From: Mobula hypostoma
Lineage: Eukaryota
NCBI RefSeq assembly: GCF_963921235.1
Contig: NC_086097.1
Location: 143,284,001-143,348,000 of the forward strand
DNA: 64,000 nucleotides
Direction: 5' to 3'
Positions 3,986-26,498 of the stretch are shown here, in pieces. The position numbers and the translations under genes were made by a program. Under the pieces are notes generated by a model that made no database searches, was not told where the DNA came from, and saw only the letters and a program-made list of their open reading frames with translations. Within the stretch, counting starts at the first letter, position 1; every line of letters starts with the position of its first letter.

Positions 3986-4363
3986 TAAGGCATAGACTCA
4001 TAGAAAAGTAGTGTCTGAATGACCAGAGATGAGTGAAATATTCCTTTCAGGTAATGTGTCAAATGATTATGTTTAAGAATGGTTTTTTTTAAAAGCTAAG
4101 CATTTCTTATCCTACAGACCAAAATATCTTCTCTGTGGTTTATCCCAATATTTGAAGGTTTGTGTGTGTGTGTGTGTCTGACCCCCTCCCCCCACCTTCC
4201 ATTTCGCTGTAGAGTGCAATTCGAATTGCTTGAAAGTTGATATTCCGGAAAAGGCAACTCTGTGATTGCCACTAGATCTACACCCTAAACATTCATTTCC
4301 TCCTGCACATTGTACGTGCAGTGATTCAAAAAAGACAGCTCACCAACACCCTCTTATGGTCTC

Positions 4364-4495
4364 GTGAGAAAATCTGCAGATGCTGGAAATCCAAAGCAAC
4401 AACAAAATGCTGGGAGAACTCAGCAGGTCAGGCAACGTCTATAGAAGAGAGGTGAACAGTCAACATTTTGGGCTGAGACCTTTCATCAGGACTGT
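4364..4495 (-). mobile_element. PLE terminal-repeat fragment ending at a degenerate hammerhead motif
   Basis: aaatctgcagatgctggaaatcc...gagacctttcatcaggactg, the same family as the other PLE ends in the window. Confidence 0.65.
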
Positions 4496-4890
4496 TTAAC
4501 CATATTTATAAACGAATAAGAAAATGTCCAATTCGAGAGGATTATACAGTCTATCTGACACAGAAGATGCATTTTTGTGCGTAGAGCAGTGCGGAGATGT
4601 TGTGCTCCAGTTTCCGTTACAACAAGAGAGCTGCAGGAGGAGGTCATGGATTCGGGCTGCATCAGTGGAGGCTGAGGCAGGGTCGATGTTTCAGGTGGAG
4701 ATCCTGAATCAGAAAGGTGCTTACCCTTTAAAGAAACTGATAAGCTCAGCGGTCAGGACTGAATCAGGGTCTCGAACGAAATGTGGGCTATTCCTTTTCC
4801 TCAAAGTATACTGTTAGTTCAGTAGCGTTCCTCCTGCAGTTTATCTCCCCTTTCAGATTTCAATACCTTTCGACCATCTGGAGTTAGGCT

Positions 4891-7800
4891 GGTTTTTCAA
4901 CTCGATCGTCTTCAAACAATTCCTGAATATACTCAGTCCATCTGTTCATAATCTCATCTTTTTCCATGATAATGGTACCGTCCTTTGCTTTCAAACATCT
5001 ACCCGAAGAACAGAGGAGCTTTTTACCAGTGATATTCTTGATTTGTTGATGTAACCTTTTTGGATCAGTAATAGGGATTCTTTCTATTTGGTCACATTCC
5101 TGGTTTAACCATTCTTCTTTGGCTTTTTGACATAAGCTTTTAACTTTTTTATCTAAGGACTTATATTCTATAGGATTTGCTTTCTTCCGTCTCCTGTCTT
5201 CCATTAGATTTTTGATTTCATCTGTCATCCATTTATTCTTTGTGTTTTTTTCTTTTTTAGGAATCACTGACTTTGCTGATTCTACCAAGCCATCCTTTGG
5301 AGAGTTAAACTTAATTTCTTCATGATTGCTATCACCTTCAACAGATTCTATTTCTAGACTTTGAAATCTATTCCTTACTTCAGTTGTAAATTTTTGTCTT
5401 AAGTTTTCTTCAATTAATTGTGAGTAGTCAAGGGATTGTTCAGGTTTTTGCTTTAGTTTTTTAAGTTTTACTTTTACATGACATACTGCTGGGTTATGGT
5501 CACTATTACAGTCTGCACCTGGATGTGTTTTGCACTGAGTCACTGAGTGTCTAAATCTTTGGTTTATAGTAATAAAGTCAATTTGATTTCTAGTGTTATC
5601 ACCTGGACTTTTCCAGATCCACAAGCGTCTTGGATGGTTCTTAAAGTAGGTATTCATAATGACCTAATTATTCATCTTGCACCATTCTACCCATTTCTCA
5701 CCTCTTTCATTTCTTTCCCCAGTCCAAATTTTCCCATGGTATTTCCATCAGTACCTTGTCCTACTTTAGCATTTAGATCTCCCATGACAATAACAATATC
5801 TTAAGATTTGCATCCATTCTTTGCCTGTTCAAGCTCTTCATAGAATTTATCTATATCCTCATTTGTTCCATCCATTTTTGGTGCATACACCTGTATAATT
5901 GCTAAATCAAATGGTTGTCCTGTGAATCTAACAAGGAGCACTCTTTCTGATATTGCCCAATGTCCTAAAACACTTTTTGCCGTGTTTTCATCCATAAGAA
6001 TTCCTATTCCATTAGTATGGGATGTTCCACAAGAATAAATAGTGTTTTATTTCTATTCTGACATGTTTCAGCACCTATCTAACGAACTTCGCTAATTCCC
6101 ATGATGTTAACCTTTAGTCTTTCCATTTCATTTATCACATTGTCCAATCTTCCTGCTTGATATAGGGTTTTTACATTCCAAGTGGCAATAATTTTCTTTT
6201 GTGTTACTTGAATTTTATGAGCAGTAGCTTGATGACGGTCGGGGATCCCCTGCTGACCAGGATCAACCCTACCGAGCGAAGTATATTCAAGAATTGTTTG
6301 AAGATGATCGAGGTGAAAAACCAGAAATTAAGAAAAACATTGAAGGTCCAAGTATTTTAAAATCTGAAGTTCGTAATGCAAAAATAAGATGAAGAAAGGA
6401 AAGGCAGCAGGTCCTGATGAATTAGTAATAGAACAAGATATTGCCCTTGAAGATTATGGAATTGAAAAACTTACAGATTTAATCAATGACATTTATGAAA
6501 CTGGAATAATACCAGAAAAGATGAAAAAAACAGTATTTATCATTCTTCCTAAGAAACCTGGAGCAATAGAATGTGAATTTTATAGGACCACAAGTTTAAT
6601 GAGTCATATCACCAAGATATTTCTAAGAATTTTGATGACAAGAACTAAAAGTAAGATGCAAGCTGAAATAAGAATGTGGTTTTGTGAAAGACAAAGGTAC
6701 GGGAAACACAATATTGATGTTAAGGATGCTATCAGAACGAGCTATTCAAGTGCAAAAGGATTTGTTTGTTTTATCATCTACACAAAAGCATTTGATAAAG
6801 TGAAGAACAATAAGTTATTTGAAATATTCCAGGAAACTCTAGATCTAGATTCGAAAGACCTCTGCCTAATCAGAAATCTGTACTGGGAACAAACTGCCGC
6901 TGTAAGAATAGCTGGAAAAGTGAGTCAGTTTACGAAAATCAAGAGAGGCGTTCAACAAGGGTGTGTTTTCTCCCCTGATTTGTTTAATGTGTACAGTGAC
7001 ACAATATTACAAAAAATAAGAGACATCTTGGGAATCAAAGTTGGCGGTGAAATCATCAATAATTTCAGATATGCAGATGACACTGTTAATTGCAAGTATG
7101 GAGGAAGAACTACAAAACTTAATTGACACAAAATGCTGTTGGAACGCAGCAGGCCAGGCAGTATCTATAGGAAGATGTACAGTCGACGTTTCAAGTGGAG
7201 ACCCTTCGCCAGGCTAAGGGAAGTAAGAGATTTGAAAGGGGGAGGAGGAGACCCAAAATGATAGGAGAAGACAGGAGGGGGAGGGATGAAGCCAAGAGCT
7301 GGGAAGTTGATTGGCAAAAGGGATACAAGGCTGGAGAAGGGGGAGTATCATTAGGACGGAAGGCCTTGGAAGGAAGAAAGGGGGAGGGGAGCACCAGAGG
7401 AAGATGGAGAACAGGCAAGGAGTTATTGTGAGAGGGAAAGAAAGAGAAAAAATAAATAATACATTAGGGATGGGGTAAGAAGGGGATTGATATCTCTAAC
7501 TTCTGTTAATGCCCCTCCTCTCCTCCTTACCCCATCCCTAATTTATTATTTATCTCTCTCTCTTTCCCTCTCACAATAACTCCTTGCCTGTTCTCCATCT
7601 TCCTCTGGTGCTCCCCTCCCCCTTTCTTTCTTGTATCCCTTTTTCCAATCAACTTCCCAGCTCTTGGCTTCATCCCTCCCCCTCCTGTCTTCTCCTATCA
7701 TTTCGGGTCTCCCCCTCCCCCTCCCACTTTCAAATCTCTTACTATCTCTTTTTTCCATTAGTCCTGACGAAGAGTCTCGACCCGAAACGTCGACTGTACT

Positions 7801-8630
7801 ACTTCCTATAGATGCTGCCTGGCCTACTGCGTTCCACCAGCATTTTGTGTGTGTTGCTTGAATTTCCAGCATCTGCAGATTTTCCCGTGTTTGCATTTTA
7901 AAAAACTTAATTAATATAGTTGAAGAAAGTTCAAAAATGGGTTATCTATCAATTGCAAAAAAACAATGTATGGTGATATCCAAAAAGAAGGAGAATCCTA
8001 TCTGCAGGCTGAGAATAAACGGGGAAGACATAAAACAAGTACAGAACATTTGCAACTTAGGAAGCTGGGTGGCATCAGATGTCAGGTGCGACATGGACAT
8101 CAATAGAAGAATAGGGATGGCAAAAGACACCTTATGAGCATGAAGAGTATACTGACCAATACTAAACTAGGCATGACAACCCGCCTCAGCGTACTGAAAT
8201 GTTAGATTTATCCAAGTTATGTGGCTCAGAATGTTGGATAATTTCTAGTAACATGAGGAAACGAATTGAAGCAGCAGAGATGTGGTTTTTGAGGAGGATG
8301 CAAAGAATATCATGGACGAAACGAATATCTAACAGGGATGTCATGAACAGAGCAAACACAAAAAGAGAAATAATGTATGAGATCATGAAAAGGCATCGTA
8401 ACTTCATTGGGCATGTGATTAGGAAAGAGGTGTTAGAATACACAGTAATTATGGGAAAGATTGAAGGGAAGAAAGCAAGAGGAAGACAAAGACAAGTGAT
8501 GATGGAGATGGAGACAGCAGCCAGAGAACTGGAAATGAATACCAATGAATTGATCTACTTGGCCCGAAACAGGAGTGTGAGAGCCATAGCTGTCAAAACT
8601 CAAACTGGGCACGGCACCTGATGATGATGG
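4891..8630. mobile_element. RTE-clade non-LTR retrotransposon with inverted 5' part (APE endonuclease on minus ~4891-6270; RT on plus ~6280-8621)
   Basis: Minus: IIQVYAP, WKSPG..NQIDFI, SDH (APE). Plus: KAAGPD, KAFDKV, RGVQQGCVFSP, RYADDT, RRMQRISW (RT). (TGA)n tail at 8619-8629; 12-bp TSD tggagttaggct at 4879-4890 and 8631-8642. Confidence 0.9.
7125..7901. mobile_element. PLE-derived long inverted-repeat insertion inside the RTE RT ORF
   Basis: Arms ~7126-7490 and ~7510-7850 are reverse complements; 11-bp TSD aaaacttaatt at 7114-7124 and 7902-7912; hammerhead core CTGACGA at 7764-7770 and GAAAC-GTC at 7784-7791. Confidence 0.85.
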
Positions 8631-8776
8631 TGGAGTTAGGCTAGCCCGCCGGAACTGAGGCATTTCTGTATCTGCGAATATCCGGGAAGTGTGGGAGCTG
8701 GGGAGGAGTTAGTTCGCAGAACTGGAAAATTAGAAGTGAAGTCTTGAGGAAGAAGCCGGCAATATTTCAAATTTTG

Positions 8777-8963
8777 CACACACAAAGTGTTGAAGGAACT
8801 CAGCAAATCGGGTAGTATCTATGGAAGGCAGTAGGCAGTCGACGTTTCATGCCGAGACCCTTAACCAGATCAGTTCTCTGGATTCTGTCTGACTTTTGCT
8901 GAGTTCCTCCAGCATTTTGTGTGTGTTGCTGAAAATTTCCAGCGTCTGCGGAATCTTTTGTTT
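8777..8963. mobile_element. Older PLE fold-back mini-element directly upstream of the TBRG4 promoter
   Basis: cacacacaaagtgttgaaggaactcagc ... gctgagttcctccagcattttgtgtgtg inverted arms, followed by the family tail ttccagcgtctgcggaatc. Confidence 0.65.
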
Positions 8964-9029
8964 ATTGTTTCAAATGTGATATCGATTTACTTTTGGATTT
9001 GCATCGACCAGTTGCGGAGTGACTCTGCT

Positions 9030-9265
9030 CCAATGACGTATCACTGGTGCTTCTCACCGGGAAATGTTTCCTGGTACGTCACGGCGCCGCGCGTGAGGGC
9101 CGTGCGCACGTCAAATGACGTGAGACGTTGAAGGACGGCCATGCCGGACTCGGGAGTGAGGGTGAGTGTCTGGGTGCTGTGACCCCCAGTGAGTTAAACC
9201 CGGGGCCCCCGGGCCGGGGGTGGTTTACAAGACTCGGCAGGGAGAGAAGGAACCTGGCCATTTTA
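9030..9265 (+). promoter_or_regulatory. TBRG4: CpG-rich TBRG4 promoter with four CRE/ATF half-sites, an NRF1-like palindrome and a YY1-like motif
   Basis: TGACGT(A/G) or its complement at 9034, 9075, 9107 and 9116; palindrome cgtgcgcacg 9101-9110; gccatttt 9257-9264; local CpG enrichment just upstream of a strong donor. Confidence 0.65.
9120..9161 (+). other. TBRG4: TBRG4 putative 5'UTR exon 1 (start approximate)
   Basis: Canonical donor AGG|gtgagt at 9162 in the CpG-rich patch upstream of coding exon 2. Confidence 0.6.
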
Positions 9266-10039
9266 ACCCGTCAGAAGTAGAGCCACGGTCTCATTCCCCC
9301 CAGGGACACTGCAGCCCTGGTGCAATGGCATCTGCCAGCTCCACTTTCACCCTCTTTCTGGAGATCTAGCCCGTTCTTTCCACCCCCAGGGTCGTCGTTC
9401 TTCTCTGGTAATATCCGCGTCCTGTTCCATTGCGATGGCAAATGTGTTTCAACACCTGGACTGGAATGCCTGAAGGTGTGGCTAGGAGGTCAGGGTGTTA
9501 AACAGCTGGGTGTTAAAGAAGGAAACTAATAAAATGGAACCCATGCTCTTCAAGTAGTTTCCACTTTCCAAATATTGGAAACGAAAAGGAGCATTACTCC
9601 AATCAGACTACAGCGAAATATTGTATATAATTCACATAATTATATGTGAAAGTCTTAAAGATTGTAGAAATAATACATTACCAAAGTGGTTCAGGGGCAA
9701 GGAATTTCAGTTGAAATTTTAAACTGAAGAATCAGAGATTTGATAGAGGTAATAGAATAATTCAGTATATGAGCAACACAAAGTGTTGGTGAGGGAAATA
9801 AATATTTGATGTTTTGGTTGATCATCCCCTCTTGTGGTCTCCTGAAAGCTTGCACTCCTCCTCCTCTCTCCAACTTATTCTGGTTTCTGCCCCCTTACAT
9901 TCCAGGCCTCATAAAAGGTCTTGACCCAAAACATTGACTGTCCATAATTGCTGCTTGACCTCCTGAGCTCCACCAGCATTTTGTGTGTGGTCCTCAAGAT
10001 CTCCAGCGTCTGCAGGATCTCTTGTGTCCATGATTTACT

Positions 10040-12650
10040 ACAGGCCACCTTATCGGCACCGATCAGGATGCCAATCTAAACTAAACCCATCTGCCTGCAT
10101 GTAGTCCACATCTCTGTTCCCTGTCTGTTCATACGTATGTCTAGATGCCTCCTAAATATCACCATCATATTTGCTTATACCTCCCCTCCTAACATGATTT
10201 TGGGCATCTGCCACTCTGTAAAATTAAACTGCCTTGCCTTTATCTCAGGTTAAACATATGCCTTCTAGTATTTGACATATAAAGAATCTGTTTATCCTGT
10301 TTGTGCCTCTCATAACTTTTTATTTATTTGGAGATACAACACGGAACAGGGACCTTCTGGTCCAACGAGCCACACTGCCCAGCAACGCACCTATTCAACA
10401 CTACCTTAATCACAGGACAATTTATAATGGCTAATTGACTTACTAATTGAATTGAATATATTTAAATCTTACATCCATCCCACAACATGAGTGAGTAATA
10501 ATCTTTGCGTTGCAATGTACAGACATGTGAATTTATGAGCCTAATGGCTTGTAGAAAGAAGCTATCCCATAGCTTGTTGGCCCTGGCTTTAATGCTGCGG
10601 TACTGTTTGCCAGACAGAAGCAGCTGAAACAGTTTATGGTTGGGATGACTGGTTTCCCTGACGATCCTCCAGGTGTTCTTTCTGCACCTGATGCTGTAAA
10701 TGTCCTCAGTGGAGGGAAATTCACATCCACAGATGCGCTGGGCTGCCTGTACCACTCTCTACAGTACCCATTGATCAAGGTTGGTGCAATTCCCGTACCA
10801 AGCGGTGATACAGCCAGTCAAGGTGCTCTCCATGGTGCCCCTGTAAAAGTTCTTGAGGATTTGGGGGCTCGTGCCAAACTACTTCACTTGCCTGAGGAGG
10901 AAGAGACGCTGTTGTGCTTTTTTTTGCCATACAGCCAGTGTTTATAGTCCAGGTGAGATCTTTGGTGATGTGTCAACCAAGGAACTTGAAGCTACTCACC
11001 CTCTGAACTGCAGACCCATTAATGTTGAGCAGGGAGAGCCTGTCTTGGTTCCTCCTGTAATCCACGATCAGCTCTTTTGTTTTTTGGACATTGAGGGAGA
11101 GGTTGTCATCCTGGCATCACTGTGTCAGGGTGTCAAACTCTCATCTGTAGGCTGTCTCATCACCACTAGAGATAAAGCTGATCAAAATCATGTGATCTGT
11201 GAATTTGATCAGCAGACTGGAGCTGTGTGGGCAGCACAGTCGTGGGTGTAAAGAGAGCGAGGTGGAGACTCAGGACACAACGTGGGGGAGGGTGTGGGGC
11301 ACCTTTGTTGAGGGGCAGAGGTGAGGGAGCCCATCCTTACCACCTGTCGGCAATCCGATGGGAAGCCTAGGATCCAGGTGCACAAGGCGGGGTGCAGGCA
11401 GAGGTCTGAGCTTCCTGTCAAGTCTGGAGGGAAGTATGGTGTTAAATGCTGAACTGTAGTCCAGGAACAGCATTCTAACATATGCATCCGTCTTCTCCAA
11501 GTGAGCGAGGACGGTGTGCAGTGCTGCGGCTATGGCATCATCGGCAGACCGGTTCCGTCGGTAGGCGAATTGAGAACGCACCCTGGGGTGCCGCTGCCTT
11601 GCGGCTGTTGACACGTTGGAATGTTCTGCGTACCTCAACTTTGGAGATTACCAAGGTGCAGGTCTCGTTGGCGGCTCTCCTTGGGGGTTGAGTCCTGCCA
11701 ACCTCGAATCGAGAGCAATGAAACATTTGGCTTGTCCGGTAGCAAGATGGCAATGTTAGCTGTTCTGCTGCATTTCTTCTTGGAAGTCCGCGATGGTGTG
11801 CAGTCCTTGTCACACGCTGCAGGTGTTATTTGTTGCAGAATTGTGACTGGATTTTGTCCTTGTGTTGCTGTTTTGCCACCTTGATGGCTCTATGTAAATT
11901 ATGGTACATTTTTGTACTGTGGGAGGAAACTGGAGAACCCAAAGAAAACCCATGAGGTCATGGAGAGAACTAGTCTTTTGAACACCGCACTCCAGAATGC
12001 TCCGTTGTAATAGTGTTGCACTAACCCCTATGCTGCCATGGCATGATTGATATACTATCAATTCACCTCTTGGCTATTGACACTGGTGAAAACAGTCCAA
12101 GTTTGTTCAACCTCTCCTTAAACCTAATACAATCCAATCCAGGTTTCAATTACTTCAGATCGGTGTCCCCTCATTTTTGATCTTACTATGAAGGAAAGTA
12201 GTTTCTTCCTATTAAGCTCACCATACTATGCCATGGATTTCCATTCTGCATCCTCTCTCTTCCAAAGTGAATAGAACTAACTCATCCTGTCTTTCGACAT
12301 CAGAATTTTCCAGTCCTGGGAACATTCTCATGGATCTTCCTTGTGTTATCTCTTGCACAATCCCATTTTTCCTGTAATTTGGCTGTACTTGTGTTGTTGC
12401 CTAACTAGTGTCATATATAGTTCCAGCATACCCTTCCTGATTGCTTGGGTAATCTTGCATATCTTTTCAACACCTTACTGACCCGCCTTGTGAACTTTAC
12501 ACATCTGTGCACATATGCTCCAAGGTTCCAGTTATTGTATATTCTTTATCTTGTTTTGGACCCTGTCCCCCTCCCCTTTTCCAGTCGGATAACTTTACCC
12601 ATTAGCATTTACCACTTCCTTCCCAACTGACTAAACTAGAATATACTCAA
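10040..12650 (-). mobile_element. Nested relics: CR1 (~10040-10320, ~12050-12650) containing a V-SINE/HE1-like element (~10320-10445, ~11895-12045) containing Rex1
   Basis: CR1 3'-type sequence on both outer sides; V-domain-like tgtgggaggaaactggagaacccaaagaaaacccatgaggtcatggagagaac at ~11918-11970. Confidence 0.55.
10445..11895 (-). mobile_element. Rex1/Babar LINE fragment
   Basis: [14 protein letters not shown]...[24 protein letters not shown] and HPNHKLFQLLLSGKQYRS motifs. Confidence 0.85.
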
Positions 12651-13514
12651 AGCTATCCAGTATCCATGGAGCATGGAAGGTAGATATGGGGAAGGTGGTG
12701 GAATATGTTGGTTCCGTGACAATTACTGAAAAAAAAATTACTGTATAATCACACGAGTTTTCTAGTGTTAAATAATTCAGTGTAATCTCCTTACCCTTTT
12801 ACACAGTGAAGTTTTACAGATAAGTTCTACCTATTGAGGCTCAATGGTAAAATGTAGCGAAGATAAACCAAATGAATGATTGTACTCATCTTCACATGAA
12901 GTGCCAAATCTTCAACGTGAACCTTGCTGCGCATTATCATGCAATACATGTAAATGAGCTGAAAACAACTTTTCATTCTTTCTTTGATAGCACTTGAAAT
13001 TTCAGTTTGATGTTATTTTCATAAAAATAAAACAATCTTACGGACTTTATGCAGTGAGTTTATTCCAGAATTTGGAAAGTGGAAACTAATTGAGCGTGGG
13101 TTTCAACTTCATCAGTTTCCCCCTATAGCTGTAAATTGTTTCTCAATATCCTGACCTCTTGGCCACTTTTTCCTGGGCTAGGCTATTGCTTAAACTAAAA
13201 CACTTAAGTTGCAGTGTCCTTCTGAAATTCAGAATTATTTGCCATGTTCTGGATATTAGTGGAATTTCATCAAGTTCAGTGGAACATTTTTGAGTTGAAG
13301 TTGAAGGAGATTTAGGCTGACAGGTCTTTTTGGATAGATTCCTTATGTTTTTTTATGAAATATATAAAAACCTAACAGAACCCAGTTCATCAAATTCAAT
13401 TAAAAAATCTTAATATATTAGAAACCTTTGCTAGTATGTGAGTATTCCATACTAGGTAAATGAGATCATCGCAGGGACATTTAAAATATGTAATCTAACA
13501 ATATGGATATGAAT

Positions 13515-13875
13515 TCATCATCATTATATGCTATGTCTTATGATGTGGGCAACCATGGTCTCATGACAATGATAGTTCTTGGCAAATTTTTCTACAGACA
13601 TAATTTACCATTACTGCCTTCTATACAGTGTCTTTACGAGATTGGTGACCCCAGTCGTTATCAATACCCTTCAGAGACAGTCTGCCTGGTGTCAGTGGTT
13701 GCATAACCAGGACTTGTGATATGGACCAGCTGCTGATATGACCATCCACCACCTGCTCCCATGGCTTCAAGTGACTCCGAGTGGAGTGCTACAAAGATGC
13801 TACACCTTGCCCAAGGGTGACCAGCGGGGTAGCGGAGGAAAGAAGCACCTTATATACCTTCTTTGGTAGAGACTC
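13515..13875 (-). mobile_element. SINE-like element with a (TGA)n tail, possibly RTE-mobilised
   Basis: Begins with tcatcatcatt (the reverse of the RTE-type tail), followed by a repeat-like body. Confidence 0.35.
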
Positions 13876-13889
13876 GAATATGAATTAGG

Positions 13890-14482
13890 AAGTTTTCAGG
13901 TGACAAAATGGTAGTATTGATTGTGGTGAGGAAAGTTGTAGGCTACAGCATGATATATAATGAGTTGGTAAGGTTGACAGAACAAAGACAGATGGGATTT
14001 AAACCTGGCAAGTGCAAAGTAATGCACTTTGGAAGGACTAACAAGGGTAGTGTCTACATAATAAATGGTAGGGACATACAGGGTAATGAGGAACAGAGGG
14101 CCCTTTGTATACAAGTCCAAAGAACCCTGAAGATAGCAATGCAGATGGATGAGGTGGTGAAGAAGATCGCATGACATTTCCTTTCACTAGTCAAGGTATA
14201 GAATACAAGAGTTTTTTAAGTCTTGGTATAATTTTAGAATGCATTGGTGAAGCCATTGTTGGAGTACTGTTTTCTGTATACTAATATAGGAAAATGTCAT
14301 TCCATTGGAGGTGGTGCAGTGGAGATTGACCAGGACATTATACCAAGATAATGTTCTGGTAAATCACTGCACCACCTCCAATGGAATCATATCCTACCTA
14401 TATTAGAATACTAGAGATTTTTTAAAAGTCTTGGTACAATTTTATAACACATTGGTTAAGCCATTGTTGGAGTACTGTTTCT
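13890..14482 (+). mobile_element. CR1 LINE relic with a local duplication/inversion
   Basis: QMGFKPGKCKVMHFGRTN...EEQRAL motif; see the hairpin finding at 14207-14482. Confidence 0.75.
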
Positions 14483-14641
14483 CATTGAATGATGTAACTA
14501 GCTTCAGAGTTTGATGTTTAGCTGGTTGAATCATTACTGCAGACAGAAGTGTTTAATATGAACATCATAATTTCCTTTTTTTTTAAACTTTAGGTATCAT
14601 GAGATATAAAGTTTGAAGTGCTTTTACCTGTTCACTTTGCA

Positions 14642-15064
14642 ATGGCAATGACAGCCCGGCTCATGCCCAGGTGCATCCGGCACCTGAGTGCTTCGTTCCT
14701 CACTGTTCCAGTCTCCGCTACTGTGCTAACTACCTGCAGGCGAATCATGCCTGAACAGTACTGGTCGTCTGTGCCGTTTGCTGGTGTGCACATGTCTGCT
14801 GTTTGCCACCAAACTGACTTGCCTTCTGCTGCTGAAAAACCCTTCAGCCAGCACCCAGAGGACACAAAGATGAAGGAGCTGATTGAGTTAGCCCAGAGTG
14901 TAGAGGAGCTCCTACAGATTCCCAGTGACCAGAAAATCAATGGGAACCAAGCAGCCTCAGTGCTTATTCGTATTTGTGTCCTGAAGATAAGTCAGAAGCT
15001 GGACCCTCAGGATATCATGGGGGACGAGCGCTTCAAGCATCTTTTGAACACCATTGACAGACAG
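14642..15064 (+). CDS. TBRG4: TBRG4/FASTKD4 exon 2 (first coding exon; exon starts at 14594)
   Basis: Acceptor tttaaactttag ends at 14593; MAMTARLMPRCIRHL... (mitochondrial-presequence-like) to GNQAASVLIRI..HLLNTIDRQ; donor gt at 15065. Resembles recalled human TBRG4 DSNQAAMVLIRL..LLNSQ. Confidence 0.9.
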
Positions 15065-15384
15065 GTTGGTGACTTTCATTTTGTGAGAAACTTGGCTCAT
15101 CAGGGATGATACATGTAGTGAAATACTATGTTGTCAGTGTATCACCAGCTGGAATAATAGTTTTTGGGTATTATACTGTCAGAATTATAATCCAGGCATG
15201 GTGAAGTTAAAGCATGATAGTTTTAAGAATTTACATCCAATTTATACGAATCTAGAATGTATATGCAGCCAGTAGCAAAAAGTGAGCGTGAAGGTGTCAG
15301 ATATCCTTCATGAATACTGGAAACCTGATGTTCATACTTGCTTTATCTTTTATATTGCTTCTGTTTATGATTGATCCTAAATTT

Positions 15385-15612
15385 CCTCCCCCACTACTTT
15401 CCTCCTCACCTGGTTTCCCCTATCACTCACCAGCTTGTACTCCTTCCCCTCATCACCTTTTTCTGGTGGCTTTCCCCTTCCTTTCCAGTTCTGATGAAGT
15501 GTCTTGGCCTGAAACGTCAGCTATTTATTCCTCTCCATAGATGCTGATTTCCTCCAGCATTTTGTGTGTGTGTTGCTCCGGGTTTCTGGCAACAGCAGAA
15601 TCTCTTATGTTT
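15385..15612 (+). mobile_element. PLE terminal-repeat fragment with hammerhead core
   Basis: CTGATGA at 15491-15497 ... GAAAC-GTC at 15511-15518, followed by the family tail. Confidence 0.65.
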
Positions 15613-18216
15613 ATGCCTTATTAAATCACTCTGTTGCAGTAAGGTAACCAGAGATGGGCAATAAATTTTCTCCTTTCTAGAGTATCCAAAAATGAACTTA
15701 AAATAAGAATAGAAAGTAATGAAAGTATTCGGCAGGTTAGGAAACATACATGCTTGAGAAAGAGAATTGATGTTTTGAGTTGATACTTTTATTAGAATAA
15801 GATAAAATCAGAATTTAAAAGATTTTTTTTATAATGGTGGGTTTGGAAGGGACCAAAGAGTAGGCCTGTGTTACAGACCTGGAGTAATTGAATGACGGAA
15901 GTGGTGTTATTGCCAGCTGTAAGAGTAATAAAGACTGCTGATGTAAATAGAAGATGGATGAAATCTGAAATAACCAGAAGAGGGAAGAATAAAAAACCTT
16001 AATGTTAGAAATATGAGAATATCTGAAATTGTCTTAACTTATTCTTTAGTGCAGAACATTTTAATATAAGTAGTTGGAAGGTGAGGTGCTGTCCCTCGGG
16101 TTTGTATGAAGCTAGAGTGAGATTGGGAGTTATAGTGAAAAGCAACTGGAAGCTTAGTGTCTCCCATACATAATAAAAACATTGTGCAGAACAGCTGCGC
16201 AACCTATGTTTGTCTTTTTCAGTCCACATCATAAATTGGTCAAACTTATATGGAAAGAGTGTGAGGTTCTGGATGATGGGATAGGAAGAAGTGAAAGAGC
16301 AGACCTTGGATCCCATGTTCCTAGACATTCTACCATGTGGGACCTTGTCAAATGCCTGATGGAAATCCATATGTCAATGTCTATTGCCCTACCTTCAATA
16401 ACCTTAGTTATCTCATCAAAAAGTCTATCAGATTAGCGAAATACGATTTTTTTTACACAAAACATACTATCTCTGATTACTTACTACGTTGACAAATTTA
16501 CATAAATTCTATCCTTTAGAATTTTCTCCAGAACTTTCCTACCACAGAAGTAAACTCACTAGCTTGCCTTTATCCAGCTTATCCTTGCTGTCCTTCTTAA
16601 ATAAAGAAACAATATTGGCTGGCTGTTCTTCATTATTCCCTTGTCTTTCACATTGTGAACATGCTTTCTTTTGTCCTCTTGGTAATTTCAGATTTAATTC
16701 ATATCTTTCCCTCAGATGTCCTTTTTTATATTCATTAGCCTTTACCACCACCTTTCAACTGACACCACCATCACTTGTATCATTCAGTCTCTCTTGGTCT
16801 CCACATTTTTTTTCCTCTGCAAAAATCATTCTTTTATATCTTCGTTATTTCGAGTTATATTGAAATGTTGTTACCTGAATTGCTAATCCTGCTTCTTCAT
16901 CCAGAAATACTGCCCAACCTACTGAGTATTCCCAGCATTTTCTGTTGTCCTTTCCTTCATCTTCAATACATTGCTTTTGCTTTATGAATGTAAAATACTC
17001 ATGTGGAAATCTGTCTGTGGTTGAAGAATTCTGTGAATAATCACTCTATTGGACAGTTTCATACTCTGCCAAACTGACTTTCACTCTCACCATTGTGCTC
17101 ACTTGGTCCCTCACTTTTTCTCATGTAAACGCACAACACCTTCACAGTAGTGCAGTGGTTGCACTGGACCTGTATTCTAAGGCATGTATAGTTGATCTGG
17201 GAGCAGAAATTAGAATTTTAATTTAATAAGTGTGGAACTAAAAAAGTTTATTATCATTAATGAAGATCGTGAATCTAGTGGGTTATCTTAAAAATATAGT
17301 TTACTTCCCTAAGGGAGGGAAATTTACCATCATTATTCTGTCTGGCCTAGGTTCTTAGATCACATCTATGTGCTTCTCAGTAAGTTACCAGATTAAGAGG
17401 ATTTGTTAACTTTTAGTCCCTTTAATTTCTCTACTACTTATCCTCCTTTGTATCCCCAATACACTCAGACCCCACTTAACGTAGAGGATGCATTCCTCAG
17501 AGGTGGAGCGCTATGTAAAGCAGTGCTATGCAGGGTCTGAGTGTTTGGTCTTCTGTATTACCTCAGCTACATATTTTTTTCTGCATTTTCCTCCAATCTC
17601 TGCCTTTAAGCTCCACATGTACTTTGTATATTTTGCAAGCAGTTAGCACCAACACAATGGTTGTGAAAGCTTTTTCATAACCTTTCTTCCTCCTGTGTCA
17701 ATATTTCTTTCTCTCACTTGTAGAAATATTTGGATACAGACACCCTGCATTTACCCTTGCTAGACTGCTCTGCAAGATGCAAATTAGTAATGTGGCCACA
17801 AGCCATCATCAATTATTTTTGCACTGCTGGTTTGAGAAATATCTACAAAGGGGTATGACCCAGGCCCATGATTCCCTTGTGTTGTAAGGACTTAGAAATT
17901 TCTCAATCTGCTCTGAATGTGAGTGATGATTCCAGGTCTTCTATCAACCCAAGGTACGATTCTGTCAACCTACTCTTGATCAACAAAGTACAATATAAAT
18001 GGACCACAGAATGTTTCTGTTCATCTGGCCCATCACAGTAAGCAGACAGCTACCTATGCTTGCCAATCCTTTGAGTGTTCTTAATGCTTTTGGGTACTGA
18101 TTGGCAAGGCCCTGGGGAGCTTGGGCCCTTCCTGCTGTGCCTGGCCCTAGAAATATTTTAACAAATCCAAATGAAGGGTCTTAACCCATAATGTTACCCA
18201 TTCACTTTTTTACTTA

Positions 18217-19395
18217 GAGGGTAGTGCCGTGGATGTGATCTACATGGATTTTAGTAAGGCATTTGACAAGGTTCCACACGGTAGACTTATTCAGAAAGTT
18301 AGAAGGCATGGGATCCAGGGAAGTTTGGCCAGGTCGATTCAGAATTGGCTTGCCTGCAGAAGGCAGAGGGTGGTGGTGGAGGGAGTACATTCAGATTGGA
18401 GGATTGTGACTAGTGGTGTCCCACAGGAATCTGTTCTGGGACCTCTACTTTTTGTGATTTTTATTAACGACCTGGATGTGGGGGTAGAAGGGTGGGTTGG
18501 CAAGTTTGCAGACGACACAAAGGTTGGTGGTGTTGTAGATAGTGTAGAGGATTGTCAAAGATTGCAGAGAGACATTGATAGGATGCAGAAGTGGGCTGAG
18601 AAGTGGCAGATGGAGTTCAACCCAGAGAAGTGTGAGGTGGTACACTTTGGAAGGACAAACTCCAAGGCAGAGTATGAAGTAAATGGCAGGATACTTGGTA
18701 GTGTGGAGGAGCAGAGGGATCTCGGGGTACATGTCCACAGATCCCTGAAAGTTGCCTCACAGGTGGATAGGGTAGTTAAGAAAGCTTATGGGGTGTTAGC
18801 TTTCATAAGTCGAGGGATAGAGTTTACGAGTCGCGATGTAATGATGCAGCTCTATAAAACTCTGGTTAGGCCACACTTGGAGTACTGTGTCCAGTTCTGG
18901 TCACCTCACTATAGGAAGGATGTGGAAGCATTGGAAAAGGTACAGAGGAGATTTATCAGGATGCTGCCTGGTTTAGAAAGTATGCATTATGATCAGAGAT
19001 TAAGGGAGCTAGGGCTTTACTCTTTGGAGTGAAGGAGGATGAGAGGAGACATGATAGAGGTGTACAAGATAATAAGAGGAATAGATAGAGTGGATAGCCA
19101 GCGCCTCTTCCCCAGGGCACCACTGCTCAATACAAGAGGACATGGCTCTAAGGTAAGGGGTGGGAAGTTCAAGGGGGATATTAGAGGAAGGTTTTTTACT
19201 CAGAGTATTTGGTGTGTGGAATGCACTACCTGAGTCAGTGGTGGAGGCAGATACACTAGTGAAGTTTAAGAGACTACTAGACAGGTATATGGAGGAATTT
19301 AAGGTGGGGGCTTATATGGGAGGCAGGGTTTGAGGGTCGGCACAACATTGTGGGCTGAAGGGACTGTACTGTGCTGTACTATTCTATGTTCTATG
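18217..19395 (+). mobile_element. Young 5'-truncated CR1 LINE inserted in a PLE remnant
   Basis: ORF 18229-19032 DFSKAFDKVPH, SGVPQ, KFADDTK, LYKTLVRPHLEYC; TGA at 19030 (probably CGA>TGA); (ttctatg) tail. Confidence 0.92.
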
Positions 19396-19705
19396 CTGTC
19401 TGACCCACTGAGTTCCTCCAGCATTTCGTTTGTTGCTGCCGAATCCAGTATCTGCAATCTCTTGTGTCTCCAGTCATAATCACACTTCATAGCTGTGAAA
19501 ATGCTTAAAAGTTCTTGCACATCTAGGATTGTGTCAATTAACCAAAAGTATAAATTACCTGAATCTTCATCTCTCTCTCTGTCTCACCTGTTTTTCCATT
19601 GTACCGAGTGGGGTTACTGAACTGCACTGCATGCCAGTTGCAAATTAAGTGAGAATATTTTCCACCATAAATGCTAGAAAACAAATCAAGGACAGTCTAT
19701 ATGTT

Positions 19706-19938
19706 AGCAACATACATCAAAGTTGCTGGTGAACGCAGCAGGCCAAGCAGCATCTATAGGAAGAGGTGCAGTCGACGTTTCAGGCCGAGACCCTTCCTTC
19801 AGTTAGTCCTGACGAAGGGTCTCGGCCTGAAACGTCGACTGCACCTCTTCCTATAGATGCTGCTTGGCCTGCTGCGTTCACCAGCAACTTTGATGTATGT
19901 TGCTTGAATTTCCAGCATCTGCAGAATTCCTGTTGTTT
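19706..19938. mobile_element. PLE-derived fold-back mini-element with hammerhead motif and 14-bp TSD
   Basis: Arms 19706-19797 and ~19813-19905 are near-perfect reverse complements; TSD acagtctatatgtt at 19692-19705 and 19939-19952. Confidence 0.88.
19804..19841 (+). ncRNA. Minimal type-I hammerhead ribozyme motif
   Basis: Stem I agtc(19805-08)/gact(19837-40); CTGACGA 19809-15; stem II agggtctcggcct; GAAA 19829-32; C-GTC with predicted cleavage after 19836. Confidence 0.7.
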
Positions 19939-19970
19939 ACAGTCTATATGTTGCTTTTTTTTCTTTTCAG

Positions 19971-20294
19971 GTTTCAATCGTATGGAATGGGAACTTGATC
20001 AGCTTGCTACGGAGCCTCTTTTTCATCGGAATTGATGCTAAAAACCCAGTCCTTCGGTCTATTGAAAACGAGGTCCACTGGCGGCTGAGACGGCTAACTT
20101 TTAAACATCTCACTTCGCTTCTTGACTACTACACCAGTTTTGCACAGTCAGACCAACAGAAGGTGTTGCTGAGTGATATAATAAAACATGTGGAATTGAG
20201 GTGGGCAGAGATCACGGATGCAAAGACTGTGGCCTTGTTAATGACAAAGGTTGGACACCTGTCAGATACGCTAATGGACAAACTGGAGGATAAG
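19971..20294 (+). CDS. TBRG4: TBRG4 exon 3
   Basis: ttttcag|VSIVWNGNL...EVHWRLRRL..KVGHLSDTLMDKLEDK|gtatgc; 324 nt, phase 0-0. Confidence 0.95.
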
Positions 20295-20384
20295 GTATGC
20301 AAGACTCACTCAATGTATGTTATAATCAACATAGGAATAACTAGCATCCTTGTACAAGATTGACCTTGTTCTTTATTGTGCTGG

Positions 20385-20580
20385 CAGCATTGTCTCAGTG
20401 TTGACAAGTCCCACCCCAGAGATTTCAGTGCTTAATTCACTTCTACAATGCTGTGGAAACAGCACTGTTGAGGTTGCTGCTTTCAGAATGAATTATTCAA
20501 ACTTGCCCAGTCTGCTCTCTCTTCTGGATGTAAAGGATCCCCTGGCACCAAAGGAAGATGAAAAATGTAGTTGTCCCAGT
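20385..20580 (+). mobile_element. Deu-domain SINE relic (SacSINE/AmnSINE-like)
   Basis: cagcactgttgaggttgctgctttcagaatga...ggatgtaaaggatcccctggcac resembles the recalled Deu domain; a similar relic lies at ~60210-60420. Confidence 0.4.
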
Positions 20581-22237
20581 GTCATAGAGTCATATAGCAC
20601 AGAAACAGACCCTTAATCTCAACCAATCCATGCCGAACAGTGGCCATCTAAGCTAACCTCATTGACCCTTATTCCTCTAAACCTTTTCCATCCATGTGCC
20701 TGTCCACGTGCCTTTTAAATTTTGCCAATGTATCTTCTCAACCACTTCTAGCAGTTCATTTTATACAAGGATCACCCTCTGGGTTAAAAAAAAGTTGCCC
20801 CTCAGGTTCTTACTAAACCTTTGCCTCCTCACTTAAACTTATTCCCTCTAGTTCTTGATTCCCCAGCCTAGGGGAAGAAAAACTGCATTCACATCATCTA
20901 TGCTCCACATGATTTCGTACATCTCTAAAAGATCATCCCTAATTCTCCTATGCTCCAATGAATAAAATCCTAGCCTGCTCAACTCTTTTTCTATTACACA
21001 GTCCCTTGAGACCTGGCAAACATCCTTGTAAATCTTCTCTGCATTCTTCCCAGCTTAATGACACCATTCCTATAGCAGAGTGCTCAAAGCTGAAAACAAT
21101 ATTGCAAATGCAGCATACTCAGCATCCTGGCTGCTGAAGGCCAGCGAGCAAAAAGCCTTTTTCACCACACTCTCTACTTACGACCTCATTTTCAGGGAGC
21201 TATGTACTTCTTGATCCCCTTATTCTAAAAAATTCTCTAGGACCTTACTGATTACTGTGAAAGCCCTATCCTGATTTGTCTTTCTGAAATATAACACCTC
21301 ACCCTTAACTGAATTAAAAGTCCATTTTCCTTCATCTGCTCTTGATCCCACTATAATTCTTGATGACCATCTTCAGTGTATACAACACCTACTTTAGTGA
21401 CATCTGCAAATTTACTAAAAGTGTCTGTACATTGTCATCCAAATTATTGATATATATGAAAAATAGCGATCGGCCCACCACTGACCCATGGGAACACCAC
21501 TGGTCACTGACCTTCAGTCTGAAAAGCAACCTTTCACCATCACGCTCTGCTTCCTACCATAAAGCCAATTGTGCAGCCAATTAGCTCTCGCTGGATACCC
21601 TTTGATTTAACTTCCAGCAACAGTCTATCAAGCAGAAGCTTATTAAGGGCCTTACTGAAGTGTATATACAGTTGCAAGAAAAAGTTTATGAACCTTTGGC
21701 AATTACATAGTTTTCTGCATGAATTACTCAAAATGTGGTCTGATCTTCATGAAGTCAGTATAATAGACAGACACAATCTGCACACAAACAAGTGTACTAC
21801 TTCTCGTCGATACTGACTACACTATTTAAACAATCACAATCTAGGTTCAAAAAACTATGTGATCCTCTGGGATAATGCCTCTACAAAAACTACCTGGAGT
21901 CAGGTGTTCCAGTCAGTGAGCTGGGATTGGAAATGCCCTGCCCTGTAAAAAAAATCACACAAAGTCAAGTTACTGACAGAGCCTGCTCTTCTGAAGAAAG
22001 ATCTGTTTATGTGGACCACGCCTCAATCGAAACAACTTGTAGAGGACCTTAGAACAAGAATTAGATGCATGAAGCTGGAAAAGGCTACAAATATATTTCT
22101 AAAGATCATCAGTGTACAGTAAGCGAAATTGTCTCCAAATGGAGGAAATTCAGTTCTGTTGCTACTCTCCCTTCTGTTAAGATCACACCAAGAGTACGGT
22201 GTACAATGCTGAAGGAGCTGAAAAGAACCCAAAGGGT

Positions 22238-22970
22238 TATGGAGAACTTGGAGAGACAGGGCATGACAGGACAAAGTCAGCATGGTTTCCTTAAGGGAAA
22301 ATCTGGTTTGACGAACCTGTTGGAATTCTTTGAGGAGATTACACGTAGGATCGGTAAAGGGGATACAGTGGATATTGTATATTTGGACTTTCAGAAGGCC
22401 TTTGACAAGATGCCACGCATGAGGCTGCTTACCATGTTAAGAGCCCATTGTATTACAGGACAGTTACTGACATGGTTAGAACATTGGCTGATTGGTAAGA
22501 GGCAGCTAATGGGAATAAAAGGATCCTTTTTTGGTTGGCTGCCAGTGAGTAGTGGTGTTCCGCAGGGGTCGGTGTTGGGACTGCTTTTAATGCTGTATGT
22601 AAATGATTTAGATGATGGAATAGATGGCTTTGTTGCCAAGTTTTCAGATGATATGAAGATTGGTGGAGGGGCAGGCAGTGTTGAGGAAATAGGCAGGCTG
22701 CAGAAGGACTTAGACTGATTAGGAGAATGGGCAAGAAATATTGTGAGTGATGAATATGTGGAATTTGTTACTACAGGCAGCTGTGGAGGCCAGGTTGTTG
22801 GGTGTATTTAAGGCAGAGGTTCTTGATTGAACACTGCGTCAAAGGTTACGGGGAGAAGGTCAGGGAGTGAAGCTGAGGAGGGGAAAGAAGGATCAGCCAT
22901 GATTGAATGGTCGAGCAGACTCGCTGGGCCAAATAGCCTCATTCTGCTCCTATGTCTTATGGTCTTATGG
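22238..22970 (+). mobile_element. Internally deleted CR1 fragment inside Tc1
   Basis: QHGFLKGKS, LDFQKAFDK, GVPQGSVLG, then a jump to the 3' end with a (tatggtct) tail. Confidence 0.85.
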
Positions 22971-23569
22971 TGTAACAGCAAAAGACTTGCAGAAATCTCT
23001 AGAACTTTCTAAAATCTCTGTTCATGTGTCCACTATAAGAAAAACACTGAACAAGACTGGTGTTCATAGAAGCACACCACAGAAGAAACCACTGCACTTC
23101 AAAAAGAAAAAAGTTTCTGCACTTCTCAAGTTTGCAAAAAACCTCTTGGATGTTCCACAATGCTCTTGGGACAATATCCTATCGATAGATGAGAAAAAAG
23201 TTAAACTTTTTGGCAGAAGTGTACACCACTATGTTAGTGTGCAGTGCCCTGTTTCCTCCAAACGTCAAAACCTCATCCCAACTCTGAAGCATGGTGGAAG
23301 GAGCATCATGGTTTGGGGCTGCTTTGCTGCCTCAGGGCCTGGACAGCTTGCAATTGTTGAGGGAACAATAAATTCAAAATTGTATCAAGACATTTTACAG
23401 AAGACTGTCAAGTTAGTGGTCCATCACCTGCAGCTTAATAGGAGTTGTATGATGCAACAAGACAATGATCCGAAACACAAAAGTAAATCAACTGCAGAAT
23501 AGTTTAAAAAGAAGAAAATTTGTGTTTTGGAATGACAAGTCAGAGTCCAGACCTTAACCCAATTGAGAT

Positions 23570-26498
23570 CACAAACAAGAGAAAATCTGCAGATGCTGGA
23601 AATCCAAGCAGCACACTTAGTAGGAACTTAGTAGGCCAGGCAGATCTATGGAAAAGAGTACAGTTGACGTTCTAAGCTAAGACCCTTCAGTAGGACTGGA
23701 AAAAAAGATGGAGTCACAGTAAGAAAATTGGGAGGGAGGGAGGGGAGGAAGAGCCACAAGGTGATAAATGAAATGGGGGAGGGGGATGTTGAAGTAAAGA
23801 GTTGAGGTTGATTGGTAAAAGAGATACGGGCTGCAGAAGGGGATATCTGATAGGAGAGGACAGAAGGCCATGGAAGAAAGAAAAGGGGGAGTAGCACCAG
23901 AGGAAGGTGATAGGCAGGTAAGGAGATAAGGTGAGAGAAGGAAATGGGAATGGGGAATAGTGAAGGGTGGGGTAGGCATTACCAGAAGTTTGAGAGATTG
24001 ATGTTCATGCCATCAGGTTGGATGCTACCCAGGTGGAATTTAAGGTGTTGCTTCACCAACCTGAGTGTGGCCTCATCGCGACAGTCGAGGTGGACATGGA
24101 CTGAGATGTCCGAATGGGAAGCGGAATTACAATGGGTGACCACCGGGAGATCTTGCTTTTTCTGGCAGATGGAGCATAGGTGCTTGACGCAGCATTCTCC
24201 TAATCCGCAACACACACAAGATGCTGGTGGAACGCAGCAGGCCAGGCAGCATCTATAGGAAGAAGTATAGTTGATGTTTCGGGTCGAGAGCCTTCGTCAG
24301 GACTAATGGAAAAAAGTGATACTAAGAGATTTGAGAGGGGGAGACCTGAAATGATAGGAGAAGACAGGAAGGGGAGGGATGAAGCCAAGAGCTGGGAAGT
24401 TGATTGGCAAAAGGGATACAAGGCTGGAGAAGGGGGAATATCATTAGGATGGAAGGCCTTGGAAGAAAGAGAGGAGAAGAGGAGCACCAGAAGAAGATGG
24501 AGAACAGGCAAGGAGTTATTGTGAGAGGGAGAGAGAGGAAAAAAATAAAAATTAGGGATGGAGTAAGAAGGGGAGGTGGGGCATTAACGGAAGTGAGAGA
24601 TCAGTGTTCATGCCATCAGGTTGGAGGCTACCCAGACGGAATATAAGGTGTTGTTCCTCCAACCTGAGTGTGGCTTCATCTCGACAGTAGGGGAGGCCAT
24701 GGATTGACATATCGGAATGGGAATGGGACATGAGACTAATCCGCATTGGGTTTTACCAATACTCCTTACCAGGAGCACTGGATAGAGTAGGTCAGCGGTC
24801 CCCAACCACCGGGCTGCAAAGCATGCGCTACCGGGCCGCGAGGAAACGATATGATTTGGCGATATGAAAAATCTTTCCTCATTTTGGCACCTTTCCTCAT
24901 TCCCTGTCCGGCCACTGTTGAGCCATTACGCACGCGAGGTCATTACCCACGCGTCATCCATGTCAGCGCGGGAAGAGGATCAACTCCTCGAGCTTGCAAA
25001 TGAGGGGGGGCTGAAAAGTATGTTTGACATAACATCTCTGCTGGCATTCTGAATCAAAATCAAGACTAAATATCCTGAGATAGCCACGAAAGCACTGAAA
25101 ATGTTGCTTCCATTTCCAACATCATATCGCTGCGAAGTGAGTTTTCTGCAATGAAAGCAACGAAAACTAAATTGCGGAATAGACTGAACATAAGGAACCC
25201 CCTTCGAGTATCGCTGTCTCCCATCACCCCTCGATAGGACGGTGTTGTTGCAGGAAAACAAGCCCAGGGCTCCCACTGATTCAGCGATATTGGTGTGTTG
25301 CAATGATTTTATATGTTCATATGGGGAAAATATGTGCTGTGTGTTTAATATCCAAACGTTACTTAAAATGTTATGATGCTATTGACTTACTTATATAACC
25401 ATATAACAATTACAGCACGGAAACAGGCCAACTCTGCCCTTCTAGTCCGTGCCGAACGCTACTCTCACCTAGTCCCAGCAACCTGCACTCAGCCCATAAC
25501 CCTCCATTCCTCTCCTGTCCATATACCTATCCAATTTTTCTTTAAGTGATAATATCGAACCTGATTCTGCCACTTCTACTGGAAGTTCGTTCAACACTTA
25601 CTTCAAGCTCCCCTGTCCTCCCCTGATTATTGACTTATCGCTATATTCCTGCGAGGAAAATATGCGCTGTGTGTTTAATATTAAATTCATTAGATAAGCC
25701 CTTTTAGAAACAAAATTGTGTATTAGCCACTTATCACCTATATTCCGGTGGTGATTAACACCCCGCCCCCCCAACAGAATCGGCATAAACGATTTGTAGA
25801 AAAAAATCGGCAGGCACAAGCGCGCAGGTCACGCATGCACACTGGTGCCCGCGCAAGGCTTCATGGTCATTGTAGTCTTTCTTGGGTAAACACAACGTAT
25901 TTGACTGCTACTCTTGTCCGTTGGCAACCTCACCCCACCCCGCCGGGTCGGCCGGTCTGCAAGAATATTGTAAATATTAAACCGGTCCGCAGTACAAAAA
26001 AGGTTGGGGACCCCTGGAGTAGGTGACTCTAACAGACTTGTAGGTGAAGTGTAGCCTCAACTAGAAGGACTGATTGGGGCCCTGAATGGTATTGAGGGAG
26101 AAGTTGTAGGGCCAGGTGTAGCACTTGTTCCGCTTACAAGGATGTGAAGATGGGCCCTCACCCAATCCTCCCACCACCCACCAAGGATAGGGTTCCTGTT
26201 GTCCTCACCTACCACCCCACCAGCTTCTGCGTCCAGCATATAATTCTGCATAACTTCTGCCATCTCCAGCAGGATCCCACCACCAAACACATCTTTTCCT
26301 CTCCAGCCCGCGCTTTCTGCTTTCCGTAGGGGTCACTCCCTACCCAACTCCCTTGTCAGTTCGTTCCTCCCCACTGATCTCCCTCCTGGCACTTATCCTT
26401 TTTCCCAGTCCTGCTGAAGGGACTTGACCTGAAACATCAACAGTATTCTTTTCCATCGATGCTGTCTGGCTTCCTGAGTTCCTCCAGCATTTTATGCG
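23570..26498 (-). mobile_element. Penelope-like element (Neptune-type remnants) with inverted end, inserted in the Tc1 transposase
   Basis: 13-bp TSD acccaattgagat at 23557-23569 and 26499-26511; EQHLIFRLGSLQPDGMN (GIY-YIG C-terminus); inverted segment RVPVVLTYHP at 26144-26329; a second PLE copy is nested at ~24205-24730. Confidence 0.85.
24793..26016 (+). mobile_element. hAT-Charlie/Buster-type non-autonomous DNA transposon
   Basis: TIRs cagcggtccccaacc / ggttggggacccctg; 8-bp TSD gagtaggt at 24785-24792 and 26017-26024; hAT C-terminal remnant YPEIATKALKMLLPFPTSY..KLRNRL..QAQGSH; contains a CR1-type tail at ~25393-25595 with TSD acttactt. Confidence 0.9.

Follow-up and report, generated by a model that had tools for sequence, protein, structure and literature searches.

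Can a hammerhead ribozyme motif that lies in the sense orientation within a host gene cleave the intron that carries it? The question arises for a minimal type I hammerhead motif at positions 19805-19840 (+) of a 64,000-nucleotide stretch of the Mobula hypostoma genome (here called the window), within the gene TBRG4. The initial annotation of this DNA had read the motif as one of several minimal, dimer-type hammerheads of a Penelope-like element (PLE) and had suggested that two sense copies in one TBRG4 intron might pair and cut it. We conclude with high confidence that the motif is a minimal hammerhead ribozyme (min-HHR) at the 3′ end of a high-copy Penelope element and that, because its mirror-image arm is predicted to zip it into a hairpin, it is predicted to be masked and is probably a non-cutting passenger of the intron.

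Host gene and hammerhead motif

The placement of TBRG4 on the forward strand held up. Protein mapping puts the coding part of its first coding exon at 14642-15064 (+), 99% identical to FASTKD4 of Mobula birostris (P0004; labeled FAST kinase domain-containing protein 4 and carrying FAST_1, FAST_2, and RAP domains), and this protein maps as 10 collinear plus-strand exons from 14642 to 42018 in blocks of 86 to 100% identity. We take TBRG4 and FASTKD4 to be one gene. The second coding exon lies at 19971-20294 (+), and the motifs at 15487 and 19805 share the intron between the two (15065-19970). The claim that both copies occupy the same intron was therefore correct, while its number, intron 2, depends on a noncoding first exon near ~9070-9165. 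That stretch is CpG rich, has a GTGAGT donor, and is the likely TBRG4 promoter and noncoding first exon; its presence would also place the 7760 copy upstream of the gene. Another short inverted-repeat hairpin, with a sub-threshold Rfam match, lies at 14296-14390, ~250 nt upstream of the first coding exon.

Transcripts of the gene were sought in X10, presumed to be an RNA run and derived from another sample of the species, from an animal that may or may not carry the insertion described below. One X10 contig of 1,888 nt fits only 19968-20294, at a depth of 250, whereas unique parts of the intron have depths of 0 to 3.6 and position 19954 has no cover, the pattern expected of spliced TBRG4 mRNA.

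Direct reading of the sequence confirmed the quoted letters, and the hammerhead core, stems I and II, and palindromic ACGU reported for 19804..19841 stand in the register proposed. Stem I (AGUC/GACU, 19805-19808 with 19837-19840) has four Watson-Crick pairs plus U19804·G19841. The core box CUGACGA occupies 19809-19815, with C3 at 19809, and is followed by one extra A (19816); stem II (GGGU-CUCG-GCCU, 19817-19820 with 19825-19828) has 4 bp, the 10.1-11.1 pair being a G·U wobble. GAAA spans 19829-19832 and the ACGU palindrome 19832-19835, and in the cleavage triplet GUC C17 is C19836, with the nominal cut after C19836. Present, too, are the features that define min-HHRs: CUGANGA with one extra nucleotide (CUGACGA-A, 19809-19816), GAAA-C-GUC, a palindromic 15.1-16.1 without helix III, an NUH triplet, and a short helix I (4 bp) with a helix II opened by G10.1. 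The G10.1·U11.1 variant of helix II occurs in 8 of 56 published min-HHR examples, as counted on Fig. S3 of PMC4209133, and the pair is G-C in 2 of 11 aligned window copies. With an intact core and a G·U pair also found among the published examples, the motif without its arm is therefore a normal member of its family.

A structural descriptor comprising stems I and II, one of the checks that had been suggested, gave three matches in the window; over 300 shuffles it averaged 0.003 and never exceeded 1. The loose pattern CTGANGA-N5-30-GAAA was barely enriched (12 versus 7.1 expected; 12 reached in 5 of 100 shuffles). The other suggested check, with Rfam covariance models, found no hammerhead family among 27 matches in the window at an E value of ≤10, presumably because helix III is missing. 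Among those matches, the mir-3926 precursor (RF03560) was rejected as a generic hairpin match (50.9 bits versus a gathering threshold of 82, equal on both strands), and the other microRNA and snoRNA matches are sub-threshold hairpin matches.

Identity of the element

Linkage to protein remnants points to the source of the motif. Three stingray proteins (P0001 to P0003) map GIY-YIG C termini to 1741-1891, 23985-24203, and 24594-24728, all on the minus strand, and each of these three remnants (E < 1e-6) is followed 288 to 305 nt downstream, on the same strand, by a motif copy. The same proteins match the translation of 26102-26326 and mark an RT-thumb remnant at 26177-26411 (+) and a Zn-linker (CX2-5CxxC) remnant at 26019-26153 (−), whose third Cys is Trp in the window and Cys in P0002 and P0003. 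The Penelope identity of the fragments is taken from these homologous proteins and not from Pfam, which returned no families for three of three PLE fragments of the window and weak RVT_1 and GIY-YIG matches, below the cutoff, for the stingray homologues. The focal insertion contains no ORF, but an 87-nt part of it shows 85% complementarity to the ORF-linked copy at 24304 (−). Fit to the min-HHR consensus and linkage to GIY-YIG thus bear out the attribution to minimal, dimer-type hammerheads of a PLE.

The motif copies are the 3′ ends of a Penelope element that is probably Neptune-like, given its CX2-5CxxC linker and given that the PLE clades of vertebrates are Neptune and Poseidon; the window contains no RT core. 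The family is very abundant, with 73,383 contigs of X1 (the possible source run) aligning to the stretch and depth piled on 19797-19937, a figure that is not a copy number.

The min-HHRs of metazoan PLEs described by Cervera and De la Pena in 2014 (PMC4209133) share with the focal motif CUGANGA plus an extra nucleotide, GAAA, NUH, the palindromic 15.1-16.1 without helix III, a short helix I, and a U-rich 5′ flank, as well as a place in the 3′ repeat behind RT-EN and thousands of dispersed single copies. Helix II has 3 to 8 bp in their examples and 4 bp here, and min-HHR pairs on opposite strands 100 to 700 bp apart are also reported there. In contrast, the 56 examples aligned in that paper include no cartilaginous fish, and the focal copy, unlike those min-HHRs, is paired to its own inverted arm. 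The kind of motif is therefore a known one. For the ray family itself, we found no published account of a Penelope hammerhead family in Mobula, sharks, or other elasmobranchs, with most subscription papers, Repbase, and Dfam outside the scope of the search.

Structure of the focal insertion

The motif belongs to a 233-bp Penelope-end insertion of head-to-head (hairpin) type at 19706-19938 (+), defined by an inverted repeat, a target-site duplication, and the repeat profile and ending 30 nt upstream of the acceptor AG. Its left arm (19706-19796, −), which the initial annotation had not recorded, is a 91-bp, 100% identical inverted copy of 19814-19904 and lacks both the tail and CUGAC. A 4-nt junction microhomology, CTTC (19793-19796, +), is common to the left arm and the parent sense sequence (by comparison with the 60543− copy). 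The 34-nt tail (19905-19938, +) is one sided, on the right arm only, and many family contigs end at 19938-19941. Flank comparison identified a 14-bp target-site duplication (19692-19705 on the left and 19939-19952 on the right). An assembly artifact is an unlikely source of the 91-bp arm, given the target duplication, the continuity of an X1 record through the right junction, and the similar hairpins found at other places in the window.

Two further hairpin-type insertions of the same young subfamily lie at 50570-50781 (target duplication of 7 bp at best) and 58443-58606 (14-bp target duplication), each with the motif cut at the apex. The three young hairpins (19706, 50570, and 58443) share the base at which the inverted arm ends, which is also the end of two solo copies, and carry a 33- to 34-nt tail on the opposite arm; the arms of the three are 92 to 96% alike, and the apex differs in each. 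Across the window, target duplications of 10 to 14 bp flank six insertions; none was found at the 34030 hairpin. The arms of 50570-50781 are 93% complementary, differing at sites that vary among young copies (TATAG/TCTAG and CCCG/CCTG) yet sharing a private change, and possibly come from two RNA templates.

The inverted truncated arm, one-sided tail of 30 to 40 nt, and target-site duplication at the focal locus make up the Penelope signature described for EN+ PLEs, with their inverted pLTR and 30- to 40-nt tail (Arkhipova et al. 2013, PMC3846280; Craig et al. 2021, PMC8557442). As in the elements of those reports, a 5′-truncated copy is inverted head to head with a short junction overlap and a tail on one end, target duplications measure about 8 to 14 bp, and the linker is the CX2-5CxxC type of Neptune/Nematis. 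Unlike EN+ PLEs, both focal arms are trimmed to about 100 to 140 nt, and the whole insertion is a 233-bp hairpin without an ORF.

Copies of the motif across the window

All eight further copies claimed for the window exist, none of them more than 3 nt from its given position. The description of one copy with an intact core was right for the focal motif but not in making it the sole intact copy, since 4 of 11 copies scored in register (19805+, 7760+, 15487+, and 24304−) keep CUGANGA, GAAA, and NUH. A repeat profile returned 28 matches at E < 1e-3 and 32 at E < 1 within the window, 11 of them the copies on which it was trained, and none in the reversed window.

The older copy at 15487-15522 (+), the proposed dimer partner, has an intact core and a broken stem II (G·U, U·C, G-C, and U·G). 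Three more sense copies scored in TBRG4 (9904, 18164, and 26407) have broken cores. On the minus strand, AAAA replaces GAAA in the decayed copy at 4458-4493; a Penelope 3′ fragment at 1335-1891, in which a GIY-YIG C terminus precedes the 1436− motif, has GAAG for GAAA; and a tail-less solo copy of the young subfamily (60444-60611; 14-bp target duplication) has GATA in that place. The copies annotated at 23660(−) and 26405(+) mark either end of a single large head-to-head Penelope insertion (23570-26498), which is flanked by a 13-bp target duplication and retains remnants of the RT thumb, Zn linker, and GIY-YIG domain. The 24268(−) copy is a later arrival nested inside it, a tail-less Penelope 3′ fragment (24207-24735, −; 10-bp target duplication) in which a GIY-YIG C terminus precedes the 24304− motif. 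The 7760+ motif is contained in a hairpin-type insertion at 7125-7901 (11-bp target duplication) and faces an upstream arm that is 89% complementary. This insertion consists of nested palindromes, with three inverted-arm pairs (88, 93, and 90 nt), in one Penelope insertion within a LINE-like RT remnant.

Core conservation and covariation in the 11 window copies showed nothing beyond controls. The covariation score of 0.184 was equaled in 395 of 500 shuffles, and core mismatches numbered 8 of 99, versus 59 of 410 in the 3′ block, at non-CpG sites (P = 0.10); the lower core mutation rate leans towards the earlier view of the motif, although it is not significant. Read variants on the repeat fell outside the core in the 4 of 21 that were listed. 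Within TBRG4 (taken as 9100-42020), profile matches at E < 1e-3 are seven sense and six antisense, and those covering the motif are four sense and two antisense; on these small numbers no depletion of sense copies within the gene was seen.

Predicted masking and alternative explanations

The insertion region is predicted to fold as a single hairpin of −199.2 kcal/mol (z = −24.8), a stability that none of 200 shuffles reached. A predicted +55.8 kcal/mol would be needed in context to impose the monomer hammerhead fold and +60.1 kcal/mol to impose the dimer-ready state, whereas the isolated 54-mer would need +4.6 and +10.4 kcal/mol. In simulated folds of the growing transcript, stem II, GAAA, and GUC pair with the left arm at a probability of 0.75 to 1.0 once made and of 1.0 afterwards, so that, by prediction, the upstream arm already holds the focal motif from 19814 on during transcription. 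In the pre-mRNA, the left arm would come first and capture 19814-19904 on emergence, leaving only CUGAC, in a 17-nt apex, and the intron would then be spliced out whole. Stable upstream structures are reported to block ribozyme assembly in vivo (PMC2817708), for a ribozyme whose type may differ. The stem could still come apart through ADAR editing or the action of a helicase.

The homodimer of the focal motif is predicted at −9.5 kcal/mol versus −28.3 kcal/mol for an inactive duplex. Purpose-built min-HHR dimers cleave weakly in vitro (PMC4209133), and one of nine tested Xenopus retrozyme dimers cleaved (bioRxiv 10.64898/2026.07.22.740005). The PAc hammerhead of Anolis needs protein, and PLE protein can assist such ribozymes (PMC11167929). 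As published for other species, the motif in full-length tandem elements would probably act as a slow, dimer- or protein-assisted processing ribozyme.

The proposal of a strand-swapped dimer, in which the motifs at 15491 and 19809 would pair by way of their ACGU palindromes and cut TBRG4 intron 2 so as to regulate or damage the transcript, draws on two intact sense cores in one intron, on a 4-bp intermolecular helix III that can form, and on intronic self-cleaving ribozymes affecting host genes, such as that of CPEB3 (PMC10919898) and those of RECK and CTCL (PMC6155905). Against it, the focal motif is sequestered at a predicted +56 to +60 kcal/mol; the cores are 4,318 nt apart; and the swapped dimer, even with the arm left out, is predicted at +2.2 kcal/mol versus −22.0 kcal/mol for the inactive duplex of the same strands. 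Both hybrid sites are also mismatched. The first (15487 core with 19805 cleavage strand) would use the broken stem II and need the buried strand; the second (19805 core with 15487 strand) would need the buried core and has a C·A mismatch at 2.1-1.1, beside the cut, the closing pair that the negative-control mutant in Fig. S6 of PMC4209133 disrupts. A broken helix II need not abolish cleavage, as engineered miniribozymes with a single G-C helix II pair still work (PMC544870), though the 15487 copy has G·U there. The spliced TBRG4 signal in X10 speaks against the proposal as well, and the apparent absence of the focal copy from two relatives (see below) implies that the pairing is not conserved. 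We therefore regard cleavage of the intron by this pair as extremely improbable. More broadly, the very many intact hammerheads in manta and devil rays might cut host pre-mRNAs, in trans or as protein-assisted dimers, so that young sense copies survive in introns mainly when head-to-head insertion has given them an antisense arm of their own that locks the ribozyme. We consider such a safety catch very improbable, and the seven sense versus six antisense copies in TBRG4 argue against it, small as these numbers are.

Two alternatives to the masked Penelope end give the palindrome itself the leading part. The insertion could act through its hairpin rather than as a ribozyme, by ADAR editing, dicing, or a shift in splicing. 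The geometry is there: a perfect duplex of 91 bp lies 64 nt before the acceptor AG, and the tail together with the duplicated target (19936-19942) supplies TTTAC, which resembles a branch point, and an extra CAG situated 28 nt ahead of the true acceptor. However, the X10 exon contig starts at the normal acceptor, with no cover at 19954 and no use of the extra CAG seen, and intronic inverted repeats are often edited, mostly with no consequence. Hairpin action as the main explanation is very unlikely, and such effects are compatible with a masked Penelope end as a side effect. Alternatively, the palindromes might be a separate self-replicating family, a MITE-like or retrozyme-like unit, instead of one-off Penelope products, as the similarity of the arms of the three young hairpins could suggest. 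That the apex differs per hairpin, the tail is one sided, target duplication length varies, and the sequence also occurs in solo, tail-less, and ORF-linked form makes this reading scarcely credible. Non-LTR retrozymes (bioRxiv 10.64898/2026.07.22.740005; PMC7229834) are likewise PLE derived, carry a type I hammerhead, and are present in one chondrichthyan, but they are described there as tandem direct repeats, whereas the focal locus is a monomer with an inverted arm and does not qualify as one.

Origin and age of the insertion

How a Penelope end acquires a mirror arm may be read from the junctions of five copies in the window, on which the following mechanism is based. The element endonuclease would make a staggered target cut of about 14 nt. 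Reverse transcriptase would copy the RNA 3′ end twice, from the tail end and from an internal start 34 nt further in, with one cDNA copy on each target strand; both copies would stop early and be joined at the CTTC/GAAG microhomology. We hold this account of two priming events to be evenly poised between right and wrong. That one cDNA instead folded back and primed itself at these 4 nt is possible but more doubtful, and some other origin of the hairpin is unlikely. Two priming events are favored over fold-back because the protein of the Anolis Poseidon element PAc nicks and extends both target strands and has two start sites for reverse transcription, one on each side of the tail (Frangieh et al. 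2024, PMC11167929), a likeness that would match the two-primer model. According to the same report, PAc inserts in vitro without its hammerhead, at whose cut site no RNA-seq reads terminate. PAc differs in belonging to another clade, without a Zn linker (PMC8557442), and its AC-rich start region (PMC11167929) has no obvious match to the UG-rich sense sequence here. We found no publication that states a two-priming (twin-priming) model for Penelope, most subscription papers being outside the scope of the search.

Two unusual joints were seen among the contigs. One connects 19904 with 19939 on opposite strands, tail-less end to tailed end (tail to tail), in two X1 contigs and one X5 contig and may bear on the insertion mechanism. 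The other runs from 19839 back 35 to 19805, in three X1 contigs and one X12 contig that come from elsewhere in the genome. This joint may reflect two bare 35-nt hammerheads in head-to-tail tandem, an arrangement able to fold as a true cis dimer, or equally the nesting of one truncated copy in another. A 35-nt tandem unit, if real, would be shorter than the smallest retrozyme unit given in bioRxiv 10.64898/2026.07.22.740005, 51 bp.

The insertion looks recent and lineage specific, since its arms are 100% identical and its target duplication is perfect. Runs were compared over 19797-21200, using 4 of 24 listed runs, all in the form of contigs; no RNA ends at C19836 were seen, although contigs do not reveal such ends. 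An X1 record covering 19917-20982 has no differences, extends 22 bases into the tail, and crosses the right junction. In contrast, the fit of records of organisms B (X5) and C (X12) starts exactly at 19939, preceded by 295 and 286 nonmatching letters. On an empty allele these letters would reach 19397 and 19406, inside the next old repeat, which would account for the contig breaks there, and the two relatives thus appear to have an empty site.

Significance and neighboring repeats

The locus is a real motif of a known kind on a dead, recently inserted Penelope end, and as one more copy of a published motif it matters little as it stands. It is, however, a clean and apparently lineage-specific example of the tail-plus-inverted-arm signature of Penelope, and such short hairpins could help to choose between the two-primer and fold-back models of insertion. 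If it were true that hammerheads cut host introns, a copy-rich ray genome would be a place to see selection against unprotected sense copies, and such selection would bear on what PLE hammerheads are for.

Other repeats surround the Penelope copies. The Penelope endonuclease remnant is interrupted by a 1.2-kb insertion at 24793-26016, probably what is left of a hAT-type DNA transposon, whose ends are short inverted repeats and whose target duplication measures 8 bp. The large insertion at 23570-26498 was itself received by a Tc1-like transposase remnant (22903-23569 and 26499 onward; Pfam HTH_Tnp_Tc3_2). LINE-like RT remnants, which we take to be probably of the CR1 type, occur at 53070-54747, 18175-19032, 22235-22975, and 43948-45690, with an RVT_1 E value of 2e-31 for 53070-54194.
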